Origin: Prochlorococcaceae cyanobacterium jk18x22bins.40
GTDB lineage: Bacteria; Cyanobacteriota; Cyanobacteriia; PCC-6307; Cyanobiaceae
NCBI GenBank assembly: GCA_022826155.1
Contig: JAJDVL010000005.1
Location: forward strand, 1 to 20,070
Direction: 5' to 3'
DNA: 20,070 bases
Part shown: piece after piece, positions 2-20,070 of the stretch
How the letters are laid out: every line of letters begins with the position of its first letter
How positions within the stretch are numbered: the stretch's first letter is position 1
Program-made: the position numbers and the translations under genes
Notes under the pieces: model-generated
Told to the model about the DNA's origin: nothing
The model's input: the letters and a program-made list of their open reading frames with translations, nothing else
The model's database searches: none

Positions 2-586
2 ACCACCATGGGCTGGTTCTTTGGCTTCAAGCTCCATCTGCGCATCAATCACAAGGGCCGGATCATGCCCTTCAGGATTACGGATGGAAGCAGAGACGAC
101 CGCAAACCGCTTGAGGATATGACCGCTGCTCTACAAGGGAAGATCTTTGCTGATCAAGGCCATGTTTCCAAGTCGCTGCTGGAGCGACTCCGGCAACGGG
201 GCCTTCACTTGCTCACCAGCATTCGCCGCAACATGAAGAACGACTTGATACCCATGCTGGACAAAGAGCTGGTGCGCAAACGATTCATTATTGAAACCCT
301 CTTTGACCAGCTTAAGTCCAGCATGGGCCTGGAGCACACCCGACACCGATCCGCCATCACCGCCTTCGTCCACATTCTCTCCTGCCTGGCGGCTTACACC
401 CTGGCACAACCCAAGGTCAACATTGCCAACATCGGTATCCCCAACACCATGCCCAGCATCACAACCTCCTCTTCATCTTATCCAGAATTGAGGTTAACTA
501 CAATTCTCCACCTTCCATTGGCATCTATCGCACGGGATGGGAGATTGAGCAGTTTATATCTGCCTGTAATGTTCCCTTTGAAGTGA
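2..586 (+). mobile_element. IS982-family DDE transposase, C-terminal portion. The 5' end is cut by the window edge, and the ORF runs on past the expected family C-terminus.
   Basis: The frame of ORF 8..586 stays open back to base 2. The translation GWFFGFKLHL..ITDGSRDDR..FADQGHVSK..IRRNMKN..RKRFIIETLFDQLK..LEHTRHRS matches the D-D-E core and the IETxxxxLKxxxxxEHxRHRS tail that I recall for IS982-type transposases. Confidence 0.7.
484..507. repeat. 24-nt imperfect palindrome (agaattg / aggttaacta / caattct) centred on GTTAAC. Possibly an IS terminus or boundary hairpin.
   Basis: Read directly: 484-490 agaattg is the exact reverse complement of 501-507 caattct. It lies where recognisable transposase similarity fades out. 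Confidence 0.45.
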
Positions 587-823: not shown

Positions 824-1594
824 TTATTGTACATTCATTGATCTTCCTTCCCCTCTTGAAACCCAGAAAACTGGTTCACCTGTCCCCCAAGGCTCCCAGC
901 CGACTTGAAGATTATTCGCAGCGGCAACGGAACGAATCTTCTGATAGGCTGCAAAGCCTTCTTTCTCGAGAATAACATATATTGCTTTATTCTCCGCTGC
1001 TGCTTGATTTAGCCGACGTCTCAGGGAACTATCATCTTTCTCTAAATCTTCTATGGCATATGTGGGTTTCCCTGATCTCTGAGTACGAATCTCAAGACTC
1101 TTAAGAATATCTAATAAATTCTCATAATAATTACCAATATTATTAAGAAAATAACGATCAGAATCAAAAATAATATCAACCAAGGCCGATTTAATTTGGC
1201 TTTTGGCGAATGAATATTCTTCGTTGATAGACTTCGTCTGTTTTTCTATACAATTAATATCATATCGTAGAGAATAAAAGTAATTTGAATAGTCGTAGTC
1301 CAAACATACCCAAGAGACTTTAGAACCTACTGCACGTCGCAACTCGTGCCCCAGATCCCTGGCAGGTTGCAGATCCCAGATGCCAGCCTCACCGGCTTGC
1401 AATACTACAAATTCTTTATAGGTTTCTTGTGCTAATGGTGTACGAATTCTCAGGGAGGCATTGACGACTACGATGGCAGATAAAGCAGCCACCAAGGTGA
1501 GCACTCCCACAAGGTTCGCCAGCACATCCATGATCCCGTCCTGGTCCGGAGGCAGGCCACCAACTGCAGCAGCCTTGCGGCGCCGTCTTTTCAT
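824..1594 (-). CDS. Single-pass membrane protein, ExbD/TolR-like paralogue with a large AT-rich central insertion (third gene of the island operon).
   Basis: ATG at 1592-1594 overlaps the upstream stop (ATGA). It has a basic N-terminus (MKRRRRK) and a TM helix starting IMDVLANLVGVLTLVAALSAIVVV with Asp23 (GAT, 1526-1528). The C-terminal AIYVILEKEGFAAYQKIRSVAAANNLQVGWEPW parallels RYLIIGVRPEGFSDFEALRERAENAGIDIGYEPL of the upstream ORF. Confidence 0.6.
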   Translation of the reverse strand: MKRRRRKAAAVGGLPPDQDGIMDVLANLVGVLTLVAALSAIVVVNASLRIRTPLAQETYKEFVVLQAGEAGIWDLQPARDLGHELRRAVGSKVSWVCLDYDYSNYFYSLRYDINCIEKQTKSINEEYSFAKSQIKSALVDIIFDSDRYFLNNIGNYYENLLDILKSLEIRTQRSGKPTYAIEDLEKDDSSLRRRLNQAAAENKAIYVILEKEGFAAYQKIRSVAAANNLQVGWEPWGTGEPVFWVSRGEGRSMNVQ

Positions 1595-2067
1595 AGGAGT
1601 GCTCCCCCAGGGGCCCGGATTCGCCAGTCCTCATGTAGAGGTTCATAGCCAATGTCGATACCAGCGTTTTCCGCTCGCTCTCGCAGCGCTTCGAAGTCTG
1701 AAAATCCCTCTGGGCGGACACCAATGATTAAGTATCTTGACCTTTTGCTGGCTTGAATCGAGTTGATTAGTGAATCAACACGGGGATCTTCAAGATCTGT
1801 CTGAAAGCTTTCACCACCATCGTGAATCTCGATTAAGTTTGATCCATTGCAGATAATATAACTGGCAGTTCGAGTTTGCTCTTGAAAAGTCAAGGTCTCT
1901 TCCTTGGCTATGAGCTCAATAATCTGATATCCAGATCTCATCTGGCTGATGAGAACTGAGATAATCAGAACAAGCACTCCAACTGTTCCACCAAGGATGT
2001 CGAGGAAGGAGAACAGGCTCACCGGTGGTTTGGACATCCTACGATTAGCAACAATACGCGCCATCAC
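1591..2067 (-). CDS. ExbD/TolR-like single-pass membrane protein (second gene of the island operon). The start is GTG at 2067 or ATG at 2064.
   Basis: A strong SD GGAGGAG (2073-2079, minus strand) lies 8 nt before ATG 2064. The TM helix SLFSFLDILGGTVGVLVLIISVLI carries Asp23 (GAC, 1999-2001), as in the ExbD PLIDV motif. The roughly 100-aa C-terminal domain has the strand-helix-strand pattern and the final AGI..G motif typical of ExbD periplasmic domains. Confidence 0.65.
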   Translation of the reverse strand: MMARIVANRRMSKPPVSLFSFLDILGGTVGVLVLIISVLISQMRSGYQIIELIAKEETLTFQEQTRTASYIICNGSNLIEIHDGGESFQTDLEDPRVDSLINSIQASKRSRYLIIGVRPEGFSDFEALRERAENAGIDIGYEPLHEDWRIRAPGGALL

Positions 2068-3305
2068 TAGTTCTCCTCCACCAGCACAATCTTGCGTGGT
2101 CTGCCCACTTCGGTTAAAGCATTTTTGAGTAGACTTAATGTACTGTTCAGCTCAGTCAAAGATTCATGTAAGTGGGCGCTTGCTTGAAGCTGGGCCAATT
2201 CTGATGAAAGACTGGAGAGCTTGTTAAGCTGTTCCAGTAGGGGCTGAAGGGCATCAACGGAGTTACCCAATCCCTTGGCACTCCTGTCAAGGGCATCACA
2301 GATCTCTTCACCTTGCTGTTGGACGTTTATCCTTGCGGATTCGATCCCGGCGATGGCTTCATCAGCCATTTTATGTAGAGGCTGCAAGTGTTCCACCAGA
2401 TTCCGGGCCGCTTTCTCCGCATAGACCTTGGCTGGCTCCACCAGCACCTCCGGGTTGGGTAAGTGGGTGGTAAATGCGGCAGAGATGGCCCTCTCGAGGG
2501 TGGCTTCGTCGATGCCATCCGTTTCCGGCAAGGCTTCAAGAATCTTATTCCTTAAGTCCAGATCAATCTTCGTCAACAATCGTTGTTCCAGACGTTCAAG
2601 GAGGGTCAGTGGTAGCATAACCACCAGGGAAATTGTCAATGCCAGAAACGTTGTGTCAAAAGCTGTACCCAGACCTTCCGTGACCTGGCTGAGGCCATCT
2701 CTGAGAACATTGAAATCTTCAACTGAGGCGGCAATAAATGATTCAAAACTCCCAATTGCCTCGCCTATGCCCAACACAGTCCCAATAAATCCCAATACAG
2801 GGATAGCCCAAATAAGAATCTTCGGCAGTGCATAACTTGCCTGATAGGCCAGGTCATAGGCTTCAGTGTCATGATCCAGAGTACGCTCCACCTGTGTGGT
2901 GGAGCCACTATCAATCCATAAGGTCAAAAGTTTATTGGTGCGACGGGCCAGGAGACTGGGATCCTGTTCACTGAGGCTGAGCATCATTTCTGCAGTTTCT
3001 CGGCTGGCATCGTTCAGCTTGACAATACTGGATTGATCATGGGCCCTGATTGCCCTGATCAACAGGATCGCCTTGGCCACCAGAAATCCGAGGACCATGC
3101 CTCCGACAATCATACTGATCGGTTGAATCATTCCCCGTTGATGCAGAAGGGCATGGGCCCAGGAATCCGATGGACTTGCTGCTTGCCATAGGATCAATCC
3201 CAGCCCGGCACCTCCCAAGAGCCAATAGGGGGACCGGGGATCCAGGTCACGACGTACGGAAAGACGCTTTTTCTGCCACTGCCGAAAGATCGAACTCCTT
3301 GACAA
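2067..3305 (-). CDS. MotA/TolQ/ExbB-family proton-channel protein with a roughly 170-aa helical or coiled-coil C-terminal extension (first gene of the island operon).
   Basis: It has four predicted TM segments. The core motif PVLGFIGTVLGIGEAI...LSQVTEGLGTAFDTTFLALTISLVVMLP aligns with PLLGLLGTVLGMIKAF...IWEALLTTAVGLGVAIPVV of the ExbB at 19441-20070. The only canonical start is TTG 3303-3305, preceded by GGAG at 3310-3313. An in-frame stop lies at 3369-3371. Confidence 0.75.
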   Translation of the reverse strand: MSRSSIFRQWQKKRLSVRRDLDPRSPYWLLGGAGLGLILWQAASPSDSWAHALLHQRGMIQPISMIVGGMVLGFLVAKAILLIRAIRAHDQSSIVKLNDASRETAEMMLSLSEQDPSLLARRTNKLLTLWIDSGSTTQVERTLDHDTEAYDLAYQASYALPKILIWAIPVLGFIGTVLGIGEAIGSFESFIAASVEDFNVLRDGLSQVTEGLGTAFDTTFLALTISLVVMLPLTLLERLEQRLLTKIDLDLRNKILEALPETDGIDEATLERAISAAFTTHLPNPEVLVEPAKVYAEKAARNLVEHLQPLHKMADEAIAGIESARINVQQQGEEICDALDRSAKGLGNSVDALQPLLEQLNKLSSLSSELAQLQASAHLHESLTELNSTLSLLKNALTEVGRPRKIVLVEEN

Positions 3306-3337: not shown

Positions 3338-3602
3338 CACACAGAGAAAGGGGGTTTAGCCTTGCTACTTAACTAAGGGAAACAGTCCAGGAGTTGATGG
3401 GGATCGACAAGGGAACAGTGGCTTGCTGTTGCCCTGAATCCTGACCAGGGAAACGGGCTCGCCACCCACTCCATGGGACCGTTTCCGAGGGGGAGCCTGG
3501 TCAGCTTCTCCGGTCCGGTCCAGTGTCCTGGAAAGCCCTCCTGGGGGAGGGGAGTGGGCTCTCCCGTGGGAGCATTTGAATTGCCTTGGGGTCTATTGGG
3601 AA

Positions 3603-3689
3603 CGGAGAGGGTGGGATTCGAACCCACGAGGGTTTTGGCCCTACACGATTTCGAGTCGTGCGCAATCAACCGGACTCTGCCACCTCTCC
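3603..3689 (-). tRNA. tRNA-Ser (anticodon CGA), class II with a long variable arm. CCA is not encoded.
   Basis: Manual fold of the reverse complement: acceptor GGAGAGG/CCTCTCC, 3-bp D stem GCA/TGC, anticodon stem CACGA/TCGTG with loop CTCGAAA, variable arm TAGGGCCAAAACCCTC, T arm GTGGG-TTCGAAT-CCCAC, discriminator G. The downstream bases are TTC, not CCA. Confidence 0.9.
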
Positions 3690-3707
3690 CAGGGAAACAG
3701 CCTTAGC

Positions 3708-7842: not shown

Positions 7843-9042
7843 TCAGAGACCCGCCGTCAGCCGCGTCTCCGGGGACACGGGTGGGTTCATGGGCAGGGTC
7901 AGGCGCACGGACGCCCCCCCCTCGGGGCGGTTGAGGGCGCGCACGTGCCCCCCGTGGGTGGTGGCAATTTGCTGCACAATGGCCAATCCCAACCCACTGC
8001 CACTCAAGCTGCTGACCCGCGCCCGGGAGGCGTCACCCCGATAGAAACGCTCAAAAGCGTGTTGCAGGTCACGTTCACTGAAACCGGACCCCTGGTCCTC
8101 CACGTCCAGCTTGAGCCAGGTCTGGTCCTCCACGATTTTCACCTGGATGGTGCTGTGGTTGGGGCTATAGCGCAGGGCGTTGTCCAGCAGGTTCAGCAAT
8201 GCCCGTTGCAAACGGGATGGGTCAGCGGGAATCGTGGCTGCCGGACTGGTGCTGGTGACGGTCAGGCCCACATGCCGTAGCTCCGCCAGGGGCAGCAGAA
8301 ACTGCCAGGCCGTCTTCACGTGGTCCTCCACCGTCACGGGCGTGGTGTGGTGTTGCAGCGGCGTGTTTTCCAACCGCGAGAGTTCCAGCAAATTCTCCAC
8401 CAGGCTCTGTAGCCGAACGATTTCCTTCTGCAACCGCTCCATCAACCTGGCTTGGCGGGGATTACAATTTTCCGCCAGACTTTCACTCACCAGCCTCAGG
8501 GCGGTGAGGGGGGTTTTGAGTTCATGGGCCACGTCGCTGACCCAGCGCTCCTGCTGTTCCCTCTGGGCCAGCAGGGCGTGGCGGTTGAGGAGAAAGATGC
8601 CCACCCAACCCTGCTGGCCGGGCAGAGCCACGGCTTCCAGTTGTTCGGTGGTGACGGGTTCCAGGTGGTGGGGATTGCTGCTGGTGGAGGTGAAGACCCA
8701 CTTGATGCGTTGCCGTTGCCCTGTACGGCGCGCCCGATGACTCACCTCTTCCAGTTGATGGCAGCGGATGGCATCCAACAGGGGACGTTGTTCCCGTGCG
8801 GTCCCTTCTCCCTGGAGATGGAGCAGGCTACAGGCCTTGCCGTTCACCAGGCGGATGGTTTGCCGCCGATCCAGGACCAATACCCCCACGGGTGCCTGTC
8901 GCAGCCATTGGAGCATCTGGTCGTCCAAGGGCAAATGGCGCCTTGACGAGCGCTGCCGCTGCACAAGCCATGGGGCCAGCAGCCCCATGCCCACCCCCAG
9001 CAGCAGGGCCACGGCTTCAGCCAAAGCGATACCCGAAGCCAC
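7843..9042 (-). CDS. Sensor histidine kinase, PhoR/SphS-like (N-terminal hydrophobic segment, PAS-like region, HisKA, HATPase).
   Basis: H-box SDVAHELKTPLTAL, N-box LLNLLDNALRYSP, G-boxes DQGSGF and GSGLGLAIVQQIATTHGG, plus FERFYRGDASR. The ORF-track start is GTG at 9040-9042, which would overlap the regulator gene by 26 nt, so the true start is uncertain. Confidence 0.85.
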   Translation of the reverse strand: MASGIALAEAVALLLGVGMGLLAPWLVQRQRSSRRHLPLDDQMLQWLRQAPVGVLVLDRRQTIRLVNGKACSLLHLQGEGTAREQRPLLDAIRCHQLEEVSHRARRTGQRQRIKWVFTSTSSNPHHLEPVTTEQLEAVALPGQQGWVGIFLLNRHALLAQREQQERWVSDVAHELKTPLTALRLVSESLAENCNPRQARLMERLQKEIVRLQSLVENLLELSRLENTPLQHHTTPVTVEDHVKTAWQFLLPLAELRHVGLTVTSTSPAATIPADPSRLQRALLNLLDNALRYSPNHSTIQVKIVEDQTWLKLDVEDQGSGFSERDLQHAFERFYRGDASRARVSSLSGSGLGLAIVQQIATTHGGHVRALNRPEGGASVRLTLPMNPPVSPETRLTAGL

Positions 9043-9742
9043 GAACCGTGGTAATCAGCACAGGTTGGCTGGGGTTCTCCTCCAGTTTCTCCCGCAGCCA
9101 GCGGATATGAACATCCACGGTTTTGATGTCGCCGATAAAGTCCGGTCCCCAAATCCTCTCCAGCAGCTTGTCCCGGCTCCAGACGCGGCGGGGATGGCGC
9201 ATGAAAAACTCCAGCAGCTTGTATTGCTTGGGGGGCAAGTTCAGAGGTAGCCCTTTCATGGTGGCGCAATACTCTTCGGGATAAAGCGCCAGCTCCCCGT
9301 GTTTGAGTACATCCACGGCAGGTTGATGGGCGGTGCGGCTGGAGCGACGCAACAGGGCCCGGCAGCGGGCCACCAATTCCCGCATCCCGAAGGGCTTCAC
9401 CAGATAATCGTCTGCTCCCACCTCCAGGCCCACCACCCGGTCGGTTTCCGAGTCCTTGGCGCTCACGATCAGGATGGGGGTGGTGAAGCCGCGACGGCGG
9501 AGGTAGCGGCAGAGATCCAGGCCATGGACACCCGGCATCATCAGATCCAGGAGGATCAAATCAAACTTGCTAGTCTCCGGGGTGTCCTGAAAACGCTCCA
9601 GTGCCCCATTGCCGTGGGCCACGGCGTCCACCAGAAATCCTTCGGCCGTCAGGCTTTCGGCAATGATTTCACGGATGGTGTCGTCGTCTTCCACCAGAAG
9701 AAGCTTGGAAGGGGCCAACGGTGTGGGGGCTTGGATGGCCAA
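9017..9742 (-). CDS. OmpR/PhoB-family response regulator (receiver domain plus winged-helix DNA-binding domain).
   Basis: LLLVEDDDTIREII, DLILLDLMMPG (phospho-acceptor Asp context), VSAKD, GADDYLVKPF, and the C-terminal TVDVHIRWLREKLE..ITTVRGFGYRF. The start codon in the track is TTG (9740-9742). Confidence 0.9.
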   Translation of the reverse strand: MAIQAPTPLAPSKLLLVEDDDTIREIIAESLTAEGFLVDAVAHGNGALERFQDTPETSKFDLILLDLMMPGVHGLDLCRYLRRRGFTTPILIVSAKDSETDRVVGLEVGADDYLVKPFGMRELVARCRALLRRSSRTAHQPAVDVLKHGELALYPEEYCATMKGLPLNLPPKQYKLLEFFMRHPRRVWSRDKLLERIWGPDFIGDIKTVDVHIRWLREKLEENPSQPVLITTVRGFGYRFG

Positions 9743-17817: not shown

Positions 17818-18585
17818 TCAGCGCAATTGGAATGGTATTGTAACAAGCACCGTGATGGTGTCCCTGACTTTTGCCAGTTCATCAGGGAAAACAGGCAAAG
17901 GCTGGGCGCGTTGAATCAGCGCCAAAGCTTCCTTGTCGAGCAGGGTGTTACCACTGCTGCGCTCCAGCCCATAACTCAAAACTTCACCACGGCGATTCAC
18001 GATAAACTTCACCAGGACTGTCCCCTCATCCCCACGATACTCCGCACGGCGAGGATAGCGTTTATGTTTGTTCAACCAGTGATGGGCAGTCTTGCCGTAC
18101 TGGCTCCGTAATTGCGCCAAGTCCACGGTATCCAGAACAGACGTGGGCGCCGCCGCCGTAGTCGGGGTTGCAGGCGTCTCCGGGGTGGGGGTTCTGTTGT
18201 TGCTGCTGACAGCGGCTGTTGACGGGCTGGGGGGCGTCCGTGGGGTGGCCGCTGGCGTTGGATTGACGGCAGCCACGGATGGTCGCGTCAATGGCTCCTG
18301 CTGGACCGTGGTTGGTACGGGTGCGGGCTGGGGCGGCACAACCTCCGGTGTTGGTGGCGACGCCTCAGGGTCGGGCTGCCTGGCCGCCGGCGATGTGGGG
18401 CGGGGCGCAGGGGTAGGGTGGGCTGGTGCTGGTGGTGGGGTGGCCAGGGATACCAGAACCGGCTTGGGGGGAGGGGGAGCGTTCCGGCGCCCGGACAGGG
18501 TCTGGGGCAGCCGCGCCGCCCCCAGGGCATGAATTGTGAGGGCGGCGGCAAACGCCATGGTCCATTGGCAGGGGGTGAGCGTCAT
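17818..18585 (-). CDS. tonB: TonB-family energy transducer.
   Basis: It has an N-terminal signal-anchor, a long Pro-rich spacer (PPPPKPVLVSLATPPPAPAHPTPAPRPTSP...), and a C-terminal TonB domain YPRRAEYRGDEGTVLVKFIVNRRGEVLSYGLERSSGNTLLDKEALALIQRAQPLPVFP. It lies directly downstream of exbB-exbD-exbD. Confidence 0.85.
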   Translation of the reverse strand: MTLTPCQWTMAFAAALTIHALGAARLPQTLSGRRNAPPPPKPVLVSLATPPPAPAHPTPAPRPTSPAARQPDPEASPPTPEVVPPQPAPVPTTVQQEPLTRPSVAAVNPTPAATPRTPPSPSTAAVSSNNRTPTPETPATPTTAAAPTSVLDTVDLAQLRSQYGKTAHHWLNKHKRYPRRAEYRGDEGTVLVKFIVNRRGEVLSYGLERSSGNTLLDKEALALIQRAQPLPVFPDELAKVRDTITVLVTIPFQLR

Positions 18586-18591
18586 GGAGCG

Positions 18592-19035
18592 TTAGCGACG
18601 GTCCGCAATGGTCAGAAGCTGAAGTTGGTCAATCCCGACCTCCCGCAGGCGACTCATCACCGCCACCACCTTAGTGGCCTCTACCGCTGCCGAAGCCCGC
18701 AGAACCAGGGGTGAATCCATGGTCCCCACGTCAGGGTGCCGGGCCATGGCAAGCTGCAGGCTTTCCTGAGGCACGATCTGGGCATTGAGGAAAAGGCGGC
18801 CCTGGGCATCCATGGACAGGATCACGGCCTGGGGGGAAGACGGATCCTGGCTGGCGGAAAGGGGAGGCTCGATCTTCATTTGCTCCGCTGTCAGCTTCCC
18901 TGCCAGCATGAAAAAGATCAACAGCAGAAACACCATGTTGATGAGGGGCAGCACCCGCTCGTCGTCGTTCTTCTCGCCTCTCCCTTGCAGGCCTATGGGG
19001 AGAAGGCCCATGGGGCGTCGCCTTTGAAGGTGCAT
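18592..19035 (-). CDS. exbD: ExbD/TolR-family protein (second copy; the TM Asp is replaced by Asn).
   Basis: VLPLINMVFLLLIFFMLAG plus an ExbD periplasmic domain (VILSMDAQGRLFLN...LVLRASAAVEATKVVAVMSRLREVGIDQLQLLT). ATG 19033-19035 lies 4 nt after the upstream stop. The track's 19092 start would overlap the previous gene by 53 nt. Confidence 0.8.
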   Translation of the reverse strand: MHLQRRRPMGLLPIGLQGRGEKNDDERVLPLINMVFLLLIFFMLAGKLTAEQMKIEPPLSASQDPSSPQAVILSMDAQGRLFLNAQIVPQESLQLAMARHPDVGTMDSPLVLRASAAVEATKVVAVMSRLREVGIDQLQLLTIADRR

Positions 19036-19039
19036 GGGC

Positions 19040-19444
19040 TCATTCCCCCGGCGTTGCTTCCAGAAAAGACACCTGACTGGCTCCTGCGCCACGCAACTGG
19101 TCCAGCACAGTTACGATGCGTTGTAAAGGCACCCCGTCTGCAGGTTCGAGGGCCACCTGCCGCTGCGGTTGAAGCGCCACCTGTTCCCGCAACTGCGCCA
19201 GGGAAACGGGTTGACCGTCCAGTTGCAGGATATCCCGGCTGATGGTCACCAGCAACGCCCTGTCTCGTACTTGCGTGGGAGTGGCGTTCCTGTCCACCAC
19301 GCGGAGGTCAATCATATTGGTGCTCTGCAGGTTGGAGACCAGCATAAAGAAGATGAGCAGGATAAAGACAACGTCAATCAACGGTGTCAAGCTGACGGCG
19401 GCCCTGGAACGGCGGCCCTGGAACAGCGGGACACGCAACTTCAT
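19040..19444 (-). CDS. exbD: ExbD/TolR-family protein (first copy; canonical TM Asp).
   Basis: SLTPLIDVVFILLIFFMLVS, and the periplasmic domain LLVTISRDILQLDGQPV...VALEPADGVPLQRIVTVLDQLRGAGASQVSFLE. The ATG overlaps the exbB stop (ATGA at 19441-19444). Confidence 0.88.
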   Translation of the reverse strand: MKLRVPLFQGRRSRAAVSLTPLIDVVFILLIFFMLVSNLQSTNMIDLRVVDRNATPTQVRDRALLVTISRDILQLDGQPVSLAQLREQVALQPQRQVALEPADGVPLQRIVTVLDQLRGAGASQVSFLEATPGE

Positions 19445-20070
19445 GGCGTGACCTGCTGATCCTGGGACAGGTCGGTGGTGAACACCCGTGTGGTCACGTC
19501 GGCCAATCCATGGGTGAAATGCTCAACGCGCCCCTCCAGCCAGTTGTGAACGGCCACCACGGGGATGGCAACGCCGAGGCCAACGGCCGTCGTGAGCAGG
19601 GCTTCCCAAATGCCTCCCGAGAGGGTGGACGGGTTGATGGAGTTTTCCGCTTGGGCAATCTGCTGAAAGGCCTTGATCATGCCCAGGACTGTCCCCAGAA
19701 GGCCAAGGAGGGGCGCCAGGGAGGCGGTCACCTCCAGCAGCCGTAAGTTGGCCCTGAGGGAGATCACAAGGGCATGGCTGGCCCGCTCCACCTCCTCCCG
19801 CACCACCGCGGTGGGTATCTGGCGACACTGGCCCCGAATCGCCTGGGCCAGCACAGCGGCAGCAGGGTTGCGGCAACGCCGCGCCACGGCCAACGCCTCG
19901 GTTGATTCCCCCTCCAGGTGCAACGCCAGCGTATGGCGCACCGTCCGCAACTGATTCAACTCAAGGGAAGCAAATTGCCAAACCTTGGCCACCACCACTG
20001 TCAACGCCAGAATCGACATCCCGAGCAACACCACGATCACCGGGCCGCCAGCGCCAATCAACTGCCCCAC
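19441..20070 (-). CDS. exbB: ExbB (MotA/TolQ/ExbB proton channel). It reaches the window edge, so the 5' end is possibly incomplete.
   Basis: LAPLLGLLGTVLGMIKAFQQI and GGIWEALLTTAVGLGVAIPVVAVHNW are canonical motifs. The first codon in the window is GTG at 20068-20070, which is either the true start or simply the edge. Confidence 0.88.
   Translation of the reverse strand: MGQLIGAGGPVIVVLLGMSILALTVVVAKVWQFASLELNQLRTVRHTLALHLEGESTEALAVARRCRNPAAAVLAQAIRGQCRQIPTAVVREEVERASHALVISLRANLRLLEVTASLAPLLGLLGTVLGMIKAFQQIAQAENSINPSTLSGGIWEALLTTAVGLGVAIPVVAVHNWLEGRVEHFTHGLADVTTRVFTTDLSQDQQVTP

Follow-up and report, generated by a model that had tools for sequence, protein, structure and literature searches.

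The window, by which we mean the whole stretch of 20,070 nucleotides that was analysed, includes three genes, g1, g2 and g3, that follow one another in this order on the minus strand and are referred to here as the triad or the cassette (Table 1). The ORFs were defined from the sequence, and a new reading of it returned their coordinates, both gene junctions, the GGAGGAG element and the Asp codons of g2 (in FLD) and g3 (in IMD) exactly as an earlier note on this DNA had given them. At the first junction the TAG stop codon of g1 (nucleotides 2069-2067) overlaps a GTG at 2067 and lies 3 nt ahead of an ATG at 2064, the latter being the likelier start of g2 because its homologues begin with M(T/A)R. 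Promoter and terminator scans detected nothing above chance. The genes are considered real: homologues of each were found by the dozen, and their order is repeated in contexts unrelated to one another. In this genome the three ORFs are intact, and the coupling signals as well as all invariant residues are kept. A dN/dS of about 0.3, obtained for the cassette against a relative at 76-80% identity, was cited beside the homologues as a sign of real genes; the value against the closest relative is 0.55.

Table 1. Features of the three-gene cassette and its edges (positions refer to the window).
Feature	Coordinates	Strand	Description and basis
g1	2067..3305	-	MotA/ExbB-family channel subunit, 412 aa, TTG start
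MotA_ExbB domain of g1 (residues 127-247)	2565..2927	-	Both pore-lining helices; Pfam, family alignment, hydropathy
g1 C-terminal tail (residues 238-412)	2070..2594	-	Helical/coiled-coil-like; PDB profile matches, homologues
168-bp (56-aa) tail unit	2289..2456	-	blastn, TRF on L089 and the window, P0001 alignment
g1 C-terminal motif PRKIVLVEEN	2070..2099	-	Consensus PR(R/K)(V/I)xLxEE
Shine-Dalgarno-like GGAGGAG	2073..2079	-	At the 3' end of g1, ahead of the g2 start codon; sequence reading
g2	1591..2067 (GTG) or 1591..2064 (ATG)	-	Single-pass, 158 aa or 157 aa
g2 Asp23 codon (TM helix)	1999..2001	-	Kept in the close clade; many family members have S, N or A
ATGA overlap, g2 stop/g3 start	1591..1594	-	Translational coupling; sequence reading
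g3	824..1594	-	Single-pass paralogue of g2, 256 aa
g3 Asp23 codon	1526..1528	-	Invariant, 31/31 family members
AT-rich insert (27% GC) in g3 periplasmic domain	1085..1300	-	Lineage-specific; alignment, GC
tRNA-Ser(CGA)	3603..3689	-	ARAGORN, Rfam
IS982-family transposase fragment	8..586	+	Distal cassette edge; synteny with relatives stops here

The product of g1 matched the Pfam family MotA_ExbB (PF01618) with 35.9 bits against a cut-off of 22.9, over profile positions 14-125 of 127, which bears out its earlier description as a MotA/ExbB-like protein. The same domain was found in all listed full-length g1 homologues and is absent from the fragment matches P0037 and P0052 and from P0057. The characteristics of the protein include a basic N-terminus that carries RRDLDPRSPYW, a conserved motif, and, according to the hydropathy profile, three strong hydrophobic helices and a weak one followed by the C-terminal helical tail. 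The database entry (P0002, 354 aa) is short at the N-terminus, the 412-aa form being backed by the homologues. Two motifs of the pore helices, G175-T176-V177 and D217-T218-T219, are invariant in the family alignment (A1). It had been proposed that g1 aligns motif for motif with the ExbB encoded elsewhere in the window; this was found for one pore-helix motif, the first (G175-T176-V177), and not for the rest.

The g1 tail, of about 175 residues, is conserved in the homologues and reaches about 290 aa in relatives that have three repeats. The 168-bp unit is found once here versus about three times in tandem in close relatives. The topology of the family predicts a cytoplasmic location for this tail. 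When the g1 profile was compared with the PDB only coiled-coil and helical-bundle chains were recovered, and no ExbB, MotA or ZorA. The C-terminal consensus motif of the tail is kept from picocyanobacteria to Kiritimatiellia and Verrucomicrobiota.

Both small partners have a basic N-terminus followed by a single TM helix (residues 18-44 in g2 and 21-46 in g3) with an Asp at position 23. Beyond it, g2 has a periplasmic domain assigned to the TolR/ExbD fold (beta-beta-beta-alpha-beta-alpha-beta); in the AF2 model the pLDDT exceeds 90 from residue 67 to residue 143. A Foldseek comparison of the model with the PDB returned E. coli TolR (5by4) as top match (E 9.3e-4, probability 1.0), in a list where TolR/ExbD entries are mixed with unrelated folds, and the target-normalised TM-scores with TolR 2jwk and ExbD 8vgd/8p9r were 0.68-0.69. 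The model of whole g3 had no significant fold match in the PDB or among viral structures. Its C-terminal alpha-beta-alpha-beta unit is homologous to that of g2, and the two family alignments, A2 for g2 and A3 for g3, matched each other in hhalign with a probability of 97.3% and an E value of 2.7e-11, which identifies g2 and g3 as paralogues. A TolR/ExbD fold in g3 may be proposed through this homology and is thus supported only indirectly. Two periplasmic cysteines of g3, Cys 97 and Cys 115, are both invariant in A3, and its AT-rich insert is missing in most homologues and longer in P0190.

The description of both partners as Asp-bearing applies to the proteins encoded here. Across the family it is true of g3, whose Asp is also retained in all distant g3-position proteins inspected; the equivalent position of g2 is occupied by D in 48, S in 31, N in 22 and A in 8 of 119 members.

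Neither g2 nor g3 matched a family in Pfam, NCBIfam or PADLOC, and the earlier statement that the triad fits no described system agrees with the fact that nothing in these libraries names either protein. The ExbD profile (PF02472) in particular did not match g2, g3 or their distant homologues, and was grazed by 1 of 119 family members (E 0.002). PDB profile searches with g2 and g3 found no ExbD/TolR, phmmer searches with the ExbDs of the window against all locus ORFs gave no route to g2 or g3, and an hhalign comparison with a four-sequence ExbD/TolR alignment, two of the sequences being from E. coli, was not significant. The likeness of g2 and g3 to ExbD/TolR claimed before holds therefore for fold and architecture and not for the sequence profile. 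The earlier note had named the lack of a significant ExbD hit as a reason to give up the assignment, and such a hit was not obtained for either protein; we nevertheless keep it because structure, not sequence, supports it. Pfam detected no OmpA-like (PF00691), TonB or TolA domain in g2 or g3, as anticipated for the peptidoglycan-binding motif of the OmpA type. The possibility that g2 is a TonB/TolA-like transducer was considered and rejected, since the protein lacks an SHLS/His motif and the fold of its periplasmic domain is that of ExbD.

The G+C content of the cassette is 48%, versus 63% for the rest of the window. The cassette lies directly 3' of the tRNA-Ser gene, as expected at an island insertion site, and this tRNA was the sole match in the Rfam scan. 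Direct repeats of the tRNA 3' end of the att type were not found, and just a short motif of its 5' side recurs. Identity to the locus of a relative (L089) is 95-99% in the cassette and only about 86% in the flanking genes comEC and mgsA. The triad has been found at at least five different chromosomal sites and on two plasmids. At this tRNA-Ser island hot spot the cassette is an accessory module that was exchanged recently; the horizontal acquisition suggested before was supported by the low G+C content, the tRNA and IS edges, and a cassette identity above that of the flanking core genes. In the relative GCA_022820765.1 g1 is a pseudogene with two in-frame stops, which fits a dispensable accessory gene, and in one assembly, L001, it carries a frameshift. 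Searches of IMG/VR, the GenBank phage collection and PHROGs gave no matches, and a phage origin was rejected.

The triad is not unique to this genome and belongs to a large unannotated family. The same gene order was found in picocyanobacteria, Microcystis, Anabaena, Gomphosphaeria, Paraprochloron, Chloroflexaceae (Chloroflexota), PVC phyla and SAR324, so that the three genes recur together as a conserved unit, and the g2-like family comprises 1,778 representative clusters, with long coiled-coil periplasmic spacers in many members. In the loci read no fourth gene is conserved with the triad and the neighbours vary from locus to locus. A TonB/TolA transducer was not found beside it in the window or in any locus read, in line with the missing partner remarked upon earlier, and the loci examined likewise had no OmpA-like domain linked to the triad.

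In cyanobacteria the g2-like family is carried on integrative elements and plasmids. The neighbours in L089 include NotI and type I restriction-modification genes and IetAS, those in L090 and L091 include HEPN and helicase genes and PADLOC candidate systems, and L087 and L096 are tycheposon-like elements with an integrase plus a primase. On a Microcystis plasmid the triad follows SMODS+SLATT and PLD-SNF2 helicase genes, and a methylase gene is also present there. In the Anabaena cylindrica plasmid pANACY.03 it is located, on the same strand, 79 bp past a type III-B cmr2-cmr6 operon and a gene for a 510-aa hypothetical protein, with a viperin gene nearby. The copies of Paraprochloron, Gomphosphaeria and Chloroflexaceae are found among housekeeping genes, those of PVC bacteria appear chromosomal and core-like, and a sub-clade (L007 and L101-103) has genes for a cNMP/C39-ABC exporter and an HlyD protein and a small ORF immediately upstream. 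The association with defence proposed earlier stands, then, in that many neighbourhoods are rich in defence and mobile genes, but it does not extend to the relatives in housekeeping or type I secretion contexts. The exporter-linked sub-clade also raised the idea of the swimming motor of marine Synechococcus, which was dropped as no evidence for it was found.

Ion-driven motors of 5:2 stoichiometry are the power source of flagella, of gliding, of transport by Ton and Tol, and of immunity by Zorya. The data presented here support the view that the triad encodes an additional motor of the MotA/ExbB type, with two single-pass partners and no recognisable output partner; it is most likely a proton-driven 5:2-type motor. 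In such a machine g2 and g3 would form a heterodimeric axle ringed by five g1 subunits, and the invariant Asp of g3 would exchange protons against the g1 Thr ring, leading to rotation or to a conformational cycle. In their periplasmic part the axle proteins may serve as a plug or anchor for the complex and as an envelope sensor, and the g1 tail could be the cytoplasmic output. We judge the chances evenly balanced that this account as a whole, a self-contained ion-driven 5:2 machine that has a Zorya-like role here, is correct.

The neighbourhoods make an anti-phage or conflict role, Zorya-like and effector-less, plausible but unproven; of the roles considered for this genome it is the likeliest, and we put it somewhat short of an even chance. 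The motor itself would then be sensor and effector, for example by collapsing the proton motive force in a controlled way or interfering with the entry of DNA. A more specific and rather tentative proposal is that the triad works on its own as an anti-phage system of a new type. It would be a minimal ion motor free of effectors, with a tail of variable length as output and a heterodimeric axle that needs the Asp of one subunit only, g3. Its action could be a proton leak triggered from the envelope or a block of genome entry, the tail acting as a signalling or output element. If this were the case, the g2/g3 family of about 1,800 clusters would join Ton/Tol and the flagellar stators as the third large branch among 5:2 motors.

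Alternatively, the triad could be an envelope energiser of the Ton, Tol or SiiAB kind with no part in immunity, acting through the g2/g3 periplasmic domains or a borrowed TonB-like protein of the host on, for instance, an outer-membrane transporter, envelope maintenance or type I secretion. The architecture it shares with the ExbB-ExbD-ExbD-TonB cluster of the window itself points in this direction, as do the sub-clade beside the ABC exporter and HlyD genes, which recalls SiiAB, the copies in housekeeping contexts, the long coiled-coil periplasmic spacers, which would be expected of force transducers, and the description, for PVC bacteria, of uncharacterised motors whose TolR-like proteins form heterologous pairs (PMC12204202). 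However, a TonB/TolA, TonB-dependent receptor, Pal or secretion gene is not linked to the triad in the window or in most cyanobacterial loci, Ton and Tol have no counterpart of the conserved tail predicted to be cytoplasmic, and the cassette is sporadic, mobile, decaying in some lineages and set among defence genes. We regard this explanation as unlikely, though a serious one. That other immune systems, such as type III CRISPR or nucleotide signalling, use the triad as an auxiliary effector at the membrane, and that it is not a stand-alone unit, is suggested by its positions after the cmr operon of pANACY.03 and after the SMODS+SLATT and helicase genes of the Microcystis plasmid; but each association was seen once, Pfam, PADLOC and NCBIfam detected no CARF, SAVED or other nucleotide-sensor domain in g1-g3, and most loci, the window included, have no CRISPR or cyclase genes nearby, all of which makes it very improbable. 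Equally hard to credit is the view that the cassette of this genome, carried along by a mobile element, is a decaying island remnant with no function, since the IS982 fragment at the cassette edge, the stops and frameshift of g1 in GCA_022820765.1 and L001 and the dN/dS of 0.55 are set against intact ORFs, coupling signals and invariant residues in this genome, a dN/dS of about 0.3 at greater distance, and a cassette that is more conserved than the flanking core genes.

What is new is a widespread branch of 5:2 motors that has no name in the annotation libraries, in which an A subunit with a tail is joined by two divergent partners of the ExbD fold, with no need for a transducer or effector linked to it. 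Should the cassette give protection from phage, such a motor alone can be an immune system, and the picocyanobacteria, major primary producers with islands shaped by phage, would gain a new defence module. If it is an envelope energiser instead, a Tol/Ton-like function that is missing from cyanobacteria and PVC bacteria would have been identified. In both cases three small genes and their point mutants would allow a direct test of the hypothesis.

No named system with the composition of the triad was found in the literature. From the flagellar stators MotAB/PomAB the triad differs in that g1 scored 11.6 bits with the NCBIfam MotA model against a cut-off of 380 and an OmpA-like domain is lacking. 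The TolQ-TolR-TolA system has the same motor architecture, and its TolR is the best structural match of g2; unlike it, the triad has no TolA, TolB or Pal and is not a core locus, and TolQ is tail-less. The Ton system, including the separate ExbBDD-TonB cluster of the window (17818-20070, with tonB at 17818-18585), is similar in having a PF01618 A subunit, tightly coupled genes and small single-pass partners with a TM Asp and a periplasmic domain of the TolR/ExbD fold. It also has two paralogous small subunits of which just one needs the Asp, the cluster of the window pairing an Asp ExbD with an Asn ExbD. In contrast, the triad has no TonB and is missed in g2 and g3 by PF02472, its g1 is extended by an additional N-terminal segment and a long tail, and it is accessory, mobile and not linked to TonB-dependent receptors.

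SiiAB is a MotAB-like proton channel of the type I secretion system of Salmonella SPI-4 (general knowledge and PMC12204202). The likeness to it resides in the sub-clade found directly after the ABC exporter and HlyD-type genes; on the other hand, the window and most loci have no secretion genes, and SiiA has a MotB-like peptidoglycan-binding domain. The gliding motor of Myxococcus, AglRQS, is composed of one TolQ-like and two TolR-like subunits (general knowledge and PMC12204202). It shares with the triad one A subunit with two distinct B-type subunits, a likeness of composition, and differs in that Agl acts with the Glt trans-envelope complex, partners of which have no equivalent here. TolQ-like 5:2-type motors with heterologous TPH-vWA or TolR-like pairs, which are uncharacterised, are common in PVC bacteria (PMC12204202). 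Their axle proteins also form heterologous pairs with a conserved Asp, but their periplasmic domains are vWA folds. The fold of g2 and g3 is ExbD-like, its signature being VRPxG...G(Y/W)EP, and the triad has no linked vWA or TPR genes.

The differences from Zorya are several. The NCBIfam ZorA_2 model gave 17.2 bits for g1 against a cut-off of 100, and the weak match to PADLOC ZorA2 (E 4e-5) covers the coiled-coil tail only, which is about 175 aa long here versus several hundred in ZorA. Neither g2 nor g3 has a ZorB match or a peptidoglycan-binding domain of the ZorB type, the triad has two different B-type subunits where Zorya has one, and no ZorC/D/E/F/G effector is linked to it in any triad locus examined, the absence noted earlier for this DNA being general. 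The resemblance to ZorAB lies in an A subunit that is MotA/ExbB-like and carries a C-terminal helical tail, and in a residence in defence islands and mobile elements.

The three genes of the triad are tightly coupled and form a self-contained module whose components are those of a MotA/ExbB-type motor: g1 encodes a channel subunit with a tail, and g2 and g3 encode small single-pass partners. Inspection of the sequence showed the three minus-strand ORFs and their junctions as the earlier note had described them, and its placement of the Asp codons in g2 and g3 was correct. The g1 TAG stop overlaps GTG 2067, and ATG 2064 is found just beyond; because the g2 homologues open with M(T/A)R in the alignment, ATG 2064 is the probable g2 start. 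The public g1 annotation, protein P0002, consists of 354 amino acids beginning at Met59, and the 58 N-terminal residues missing from it include a conserved motif and a hydrophobic helix, both supported by g1 homologues. Since the homologues align across these 58 residues, including the nearly invariant RRDLDPRxPYW, a 412-amino acid g1 is right.

Coordinates of the triad and of other features in the window
Feature	Position	Strand	Remarks
g1	2067-3305	minus	TAG stop at 2069-2067
GGAGGAG	2079-2073	minus	ahead of the g2 start
g2	1591-2064 (2067 from GTG)	minus	
ATGA	1594-1591	minus	common to the g2 stop and the g3 start
g3	824-1594	minus	
Tail unit, 168 bp	2289-2456		g1 tail; 56 amino acids, 8 heptads; single copy
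AT-rich insert	1085-1300		27% GC; g3 residues 99-170, periplasmic domain
CTGTTTCCCT[G/T]	3363-3385; 3445-3459; 3678-3703	minus	three occurrences
Cassette, as compared with L089	480-3500		
comEC and mgsA, as compared with L089	3700-6800		
ORF of 306 amino acids	6894-7814		50% GC; beside mgsA, at the mgsA-side synteny break
Genuine ExbB-ExbD-ExbD-TonB cluster	17818-20070		
Genuine ExbD pair	18592-19444		

Pfam MotA_ExbB matched g1 with 35.9 bits (cut-off, 22.9), which bears out the earlier assignment of g1 and places the triad in the MotA/ExbB family. The hydropathy profile of g1 consists of a basic N-terminus, one weak N-terminal helix and three strong helices. Alignment of the g1 family showed that the G-T and D-T-T motifs, located in the last two hydrophobic helices, are invariant, and the first of them aligns with the ExbB encoded in the window. 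The tail extends for about 175 residues beyond the last helix. Its profile matched only coiled-coil or helical-bundle chains in the PDB, and its matches to ZorA were weak and far under the curated thresholds. The tail ends in PRKIVLVEEN, and the pattern PR(R/K)(V/I)xLxEE is kept at this end from picocyanobacteria to Microcystis, Anabaena, Kiritimatiellia and Verrucomicrobiota. The 168-bp tail unit is found as about three tandem copies in three relatives (loci L005, L006 and L089; L089 coordinates 8812-9306), whose otherwise near-identical full-length g1 has about 524 amino acids versus 412 in the window.

Neither g2 nor g3 had a match in Pfam, NCBIfam, PADLOC or PHROGs, and no ExbD, TolR or MotB chain was found when their profiles were compared with the PDB. 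An hhalign comparison with a small ExbD/TolR alignment was not significant overall; its best local alignment placed g2 VSLFSFLDIL on ExbD VSLTPLIDVV, with the two Asp residues paired. In its AlphaFold model, g2 has a single TM helix and a beta-beta-beta-alpha-beta-alpha-beta domain predicted with confidence. Foldseek comparison of this model with the PDB gave E. coli TolR as best match (E 9.3e-4), and the target-normalised TM-scores of the TolR and ExbD periplasmic domains were 0.68-0.69. The whole g3 model gave no significant fold match. The C-terminal alpha-beta-alpha-beta units of g3 and g2 are nevertheless homologous (hhalign 97.3%, E 2.7e-11), and both proteins have a common N-terminal architecture, to which g3 adds two invariant periplasmic cysteines. 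The fold match and the g2-g3 homology, taken together with the lack of profile matches, indicate that g2 and g3 are ExbD/TolR-like by fold and architecture within a separate, unannotated sequence family. The earlier description of both as ExbD/TolR-like consequently holds at these levels but not for the sequence profile, as PF02472 matched neither protein. The g2/g3 family comprises 1,778 representative clusters at E ≤ 1e-3, and PF02472 touched only one of 119 members scanned. The AT-rich insert in g3 is confined to the sub-lineage of the window, is longer still in the homologue P0190 (312 amino acids), and is absent from most homologues (216-220 amino acids); it may be a hypervariable region.

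The two Asp-bearing partners proposed before are present in the window and throughout the close clade, in which both g2 and g3 have Asp23, but across the family only g3 has its Asp without exception (in 31 of 31 family members and in all distant g3-position proteins inspected). At the g2 position, 119 members include 48 with D, 31 with S, 22 with N and 8 with A, and both cyanobacterial plasmids code for Ser. The same one-Asp asymmetry is seen in the genuine ExbD pair of the window, where LIDVVF in the first protein retains the TM Asp and LINMVF in the second shows Asn instead. This shared asymmetry suggests a heterodimeric axle in which one subunit would be the obligatory proton carrier. In such a motor a g1 pentamer would surround the g2-g3 axle, and proton flow via g3 Asp23 against a g1 Thr ring could drive a cycle of rotation or conformational change. 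The ExbD-fold domains in the periplasm might plug, anchor or sense, and the cytoplasmic tail of g1 would be the output.

The gene content of the window, which includes CpeS and a phycobilisome linker, is cyanobacterial, and its average G+C content is 63%. In the triad the figure is 48% (g3, 43%; g2, 47%; g1, 51%). The triad is located directly 3' of tRNA-Ser(CGA), with an IS982 transposase fragment at its other end. The motif CTGTTTCCCT[G/T] occurs twice in the spacer between the tRNA and g1 and a third time close to the 5' end of tRNA-Ser, on its upstream side; this recurrence may be due to chance or reflect a promoter-related element. A close relative, L089, shares the mgsA-comEC-tRNA-triad locus. 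Identity between the two is 95-99.5% for the cassette but 76-93% (about 86% on average) for the adjoining core genes comEC and mgsA, and synteny breaks on both outer sides, at about 480 and 6800. The cassette is more alike than its flanks, which suggests a recent exchange or sweep relative to the surroundings, at a variable hot spot. At the break on the mgsA side, the 306-amino acid ORF has an N-terminus of the HSDR_N type, and its PHROG match was phage endonuclease-like; it probably represents a further remnant of an island or a defence system.

The g1-g2-g3 order is kept as a unit across many lineages. At moderate distance dN/dS is about 0.3. The triad was found in picocyanobacterial metagenome contigs and MAGs, on plasmids of Microcystis aeruginosa NIES-2481 and Anabaena cylindrica PCC 7122, in Gomphosphaeria, Paraprochloron and one Chloroflexaceae MAG, and in many Verrucomicrobiota, Kiritimatiellia, Planctomycetota, Lentisphaerae and SAR324 genomes. 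The loci compared share no conserved fourth gene, and no similar sequences were found in phage collections. At the same comEC-side locus of L094 (GCA_022820765.1, 8290-9531), g1 has two in-frame stops (W49, Q206) beside intact g2 and g3.

In cyanobacteria the neighbors of the triad are often mobile or defensive. They include transposases, NotI and type I R-M systems, IetAS, HEPN, helicase and PADLOC candidate systems, and integrases with Prim-Pol/DUF3987 or PriCT_2/AAA_25 primases, elements that resemble the tRNA-targeting tycheposons of picocyanobacteria (10.1101/2020.12.28.424599). On the Microcystis plasmid the triad is near SMODS+SLATT, a PLD-SNF2 helicase and a large methylase. On A. cylindrica pANACY.03 (L105, 1-15816) its start is 79 bp downstream of a type III-B cmr2-cmr6 operon and a 510-amino acid hypothetical protein, which has no Pfam match and a possible RxxxxH motif, and a deoxynucleoside kinase-viperin pair is found about 3 kb downstream. 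On three different picocyanobacterial elements (L002 1616-2623, L087 5627-6961, L096 1160-2053) a gene for a LysM-domain protein is at most a few kb away from the triad; it may belong to the element or encode an accessory that binds peptidoglycan. Because these contexts are mobile and defence-rich, we tentatively rate an anti-phage or conflict role, judged from the neighborhood, as the most likely function in the lineage of the window. The triad could then act as a Zorya-like sensor lacking a nuclease, with the motor itself as effector.

Other contexts call for caution on the defence reading. The Paraprochloron triad lies among pntAB and thiamine genes, and the Gomphosphaeria and Chloroflexaceae triads also have housekeeping surroundings. 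PVC triads are near glycosyltransferase genes and include an extra protein of about 660 amino acids. In the distant triads of Kiritimatiellia and Verrucomicrobiota (L012, L016, L018, L022, L023) this protein, which has no known domain, is encoded between g1 and the two small genes; genes for a YfhO-like protein and for a GT2 glycosyltransferase are located upstream, and one for a CxxCxxCC protein downstream. In a sub-clade about 37% identical to g1 of the window (L007, 237-6094, and L101-L103; two independent loci), a cNMP-binding/C39-like ABC exporter, an HlyD-type protein and a 90-107-amino acid ORF always precede the triad, and in L102 and L103 a 161-amino acid ORF follows it. The arrangement is reminiscent of SiiAB and its type I secretion system. 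The main rival to defence, a Ton/Tol/SiiAB-like envelope energiser, is rated less likely; the triad includes neither TonB nor TolA, which sets it apart from Ton and Tol. A defence module remains a credible and easily tested candidate, although the contexts are heterogeneous, and the earlier view of an additional acquired motor with a plausible defence role is supported with the corrections described.

Compared with Zorya, the triad misses the ZorA thresholds and lacks both a peptidoglycan-binding ZorB and the effectors; it also fell outside the flagellar stators in the membership tests applied. Recent surveys class such proteins as "generic ion transporters" (PMC12505986), and other uncharacterised heterologous-pair motors with vWA domains have been described (PMC12204202); our literature searches found no description of the family of the triad. 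In its predicted mode of action the triad comes closest to motors of the ExbB-ExbD1-ExbD2 or AglRQS type, to which a ZorA-like tail is added, and it represents a large unnamed motor family.
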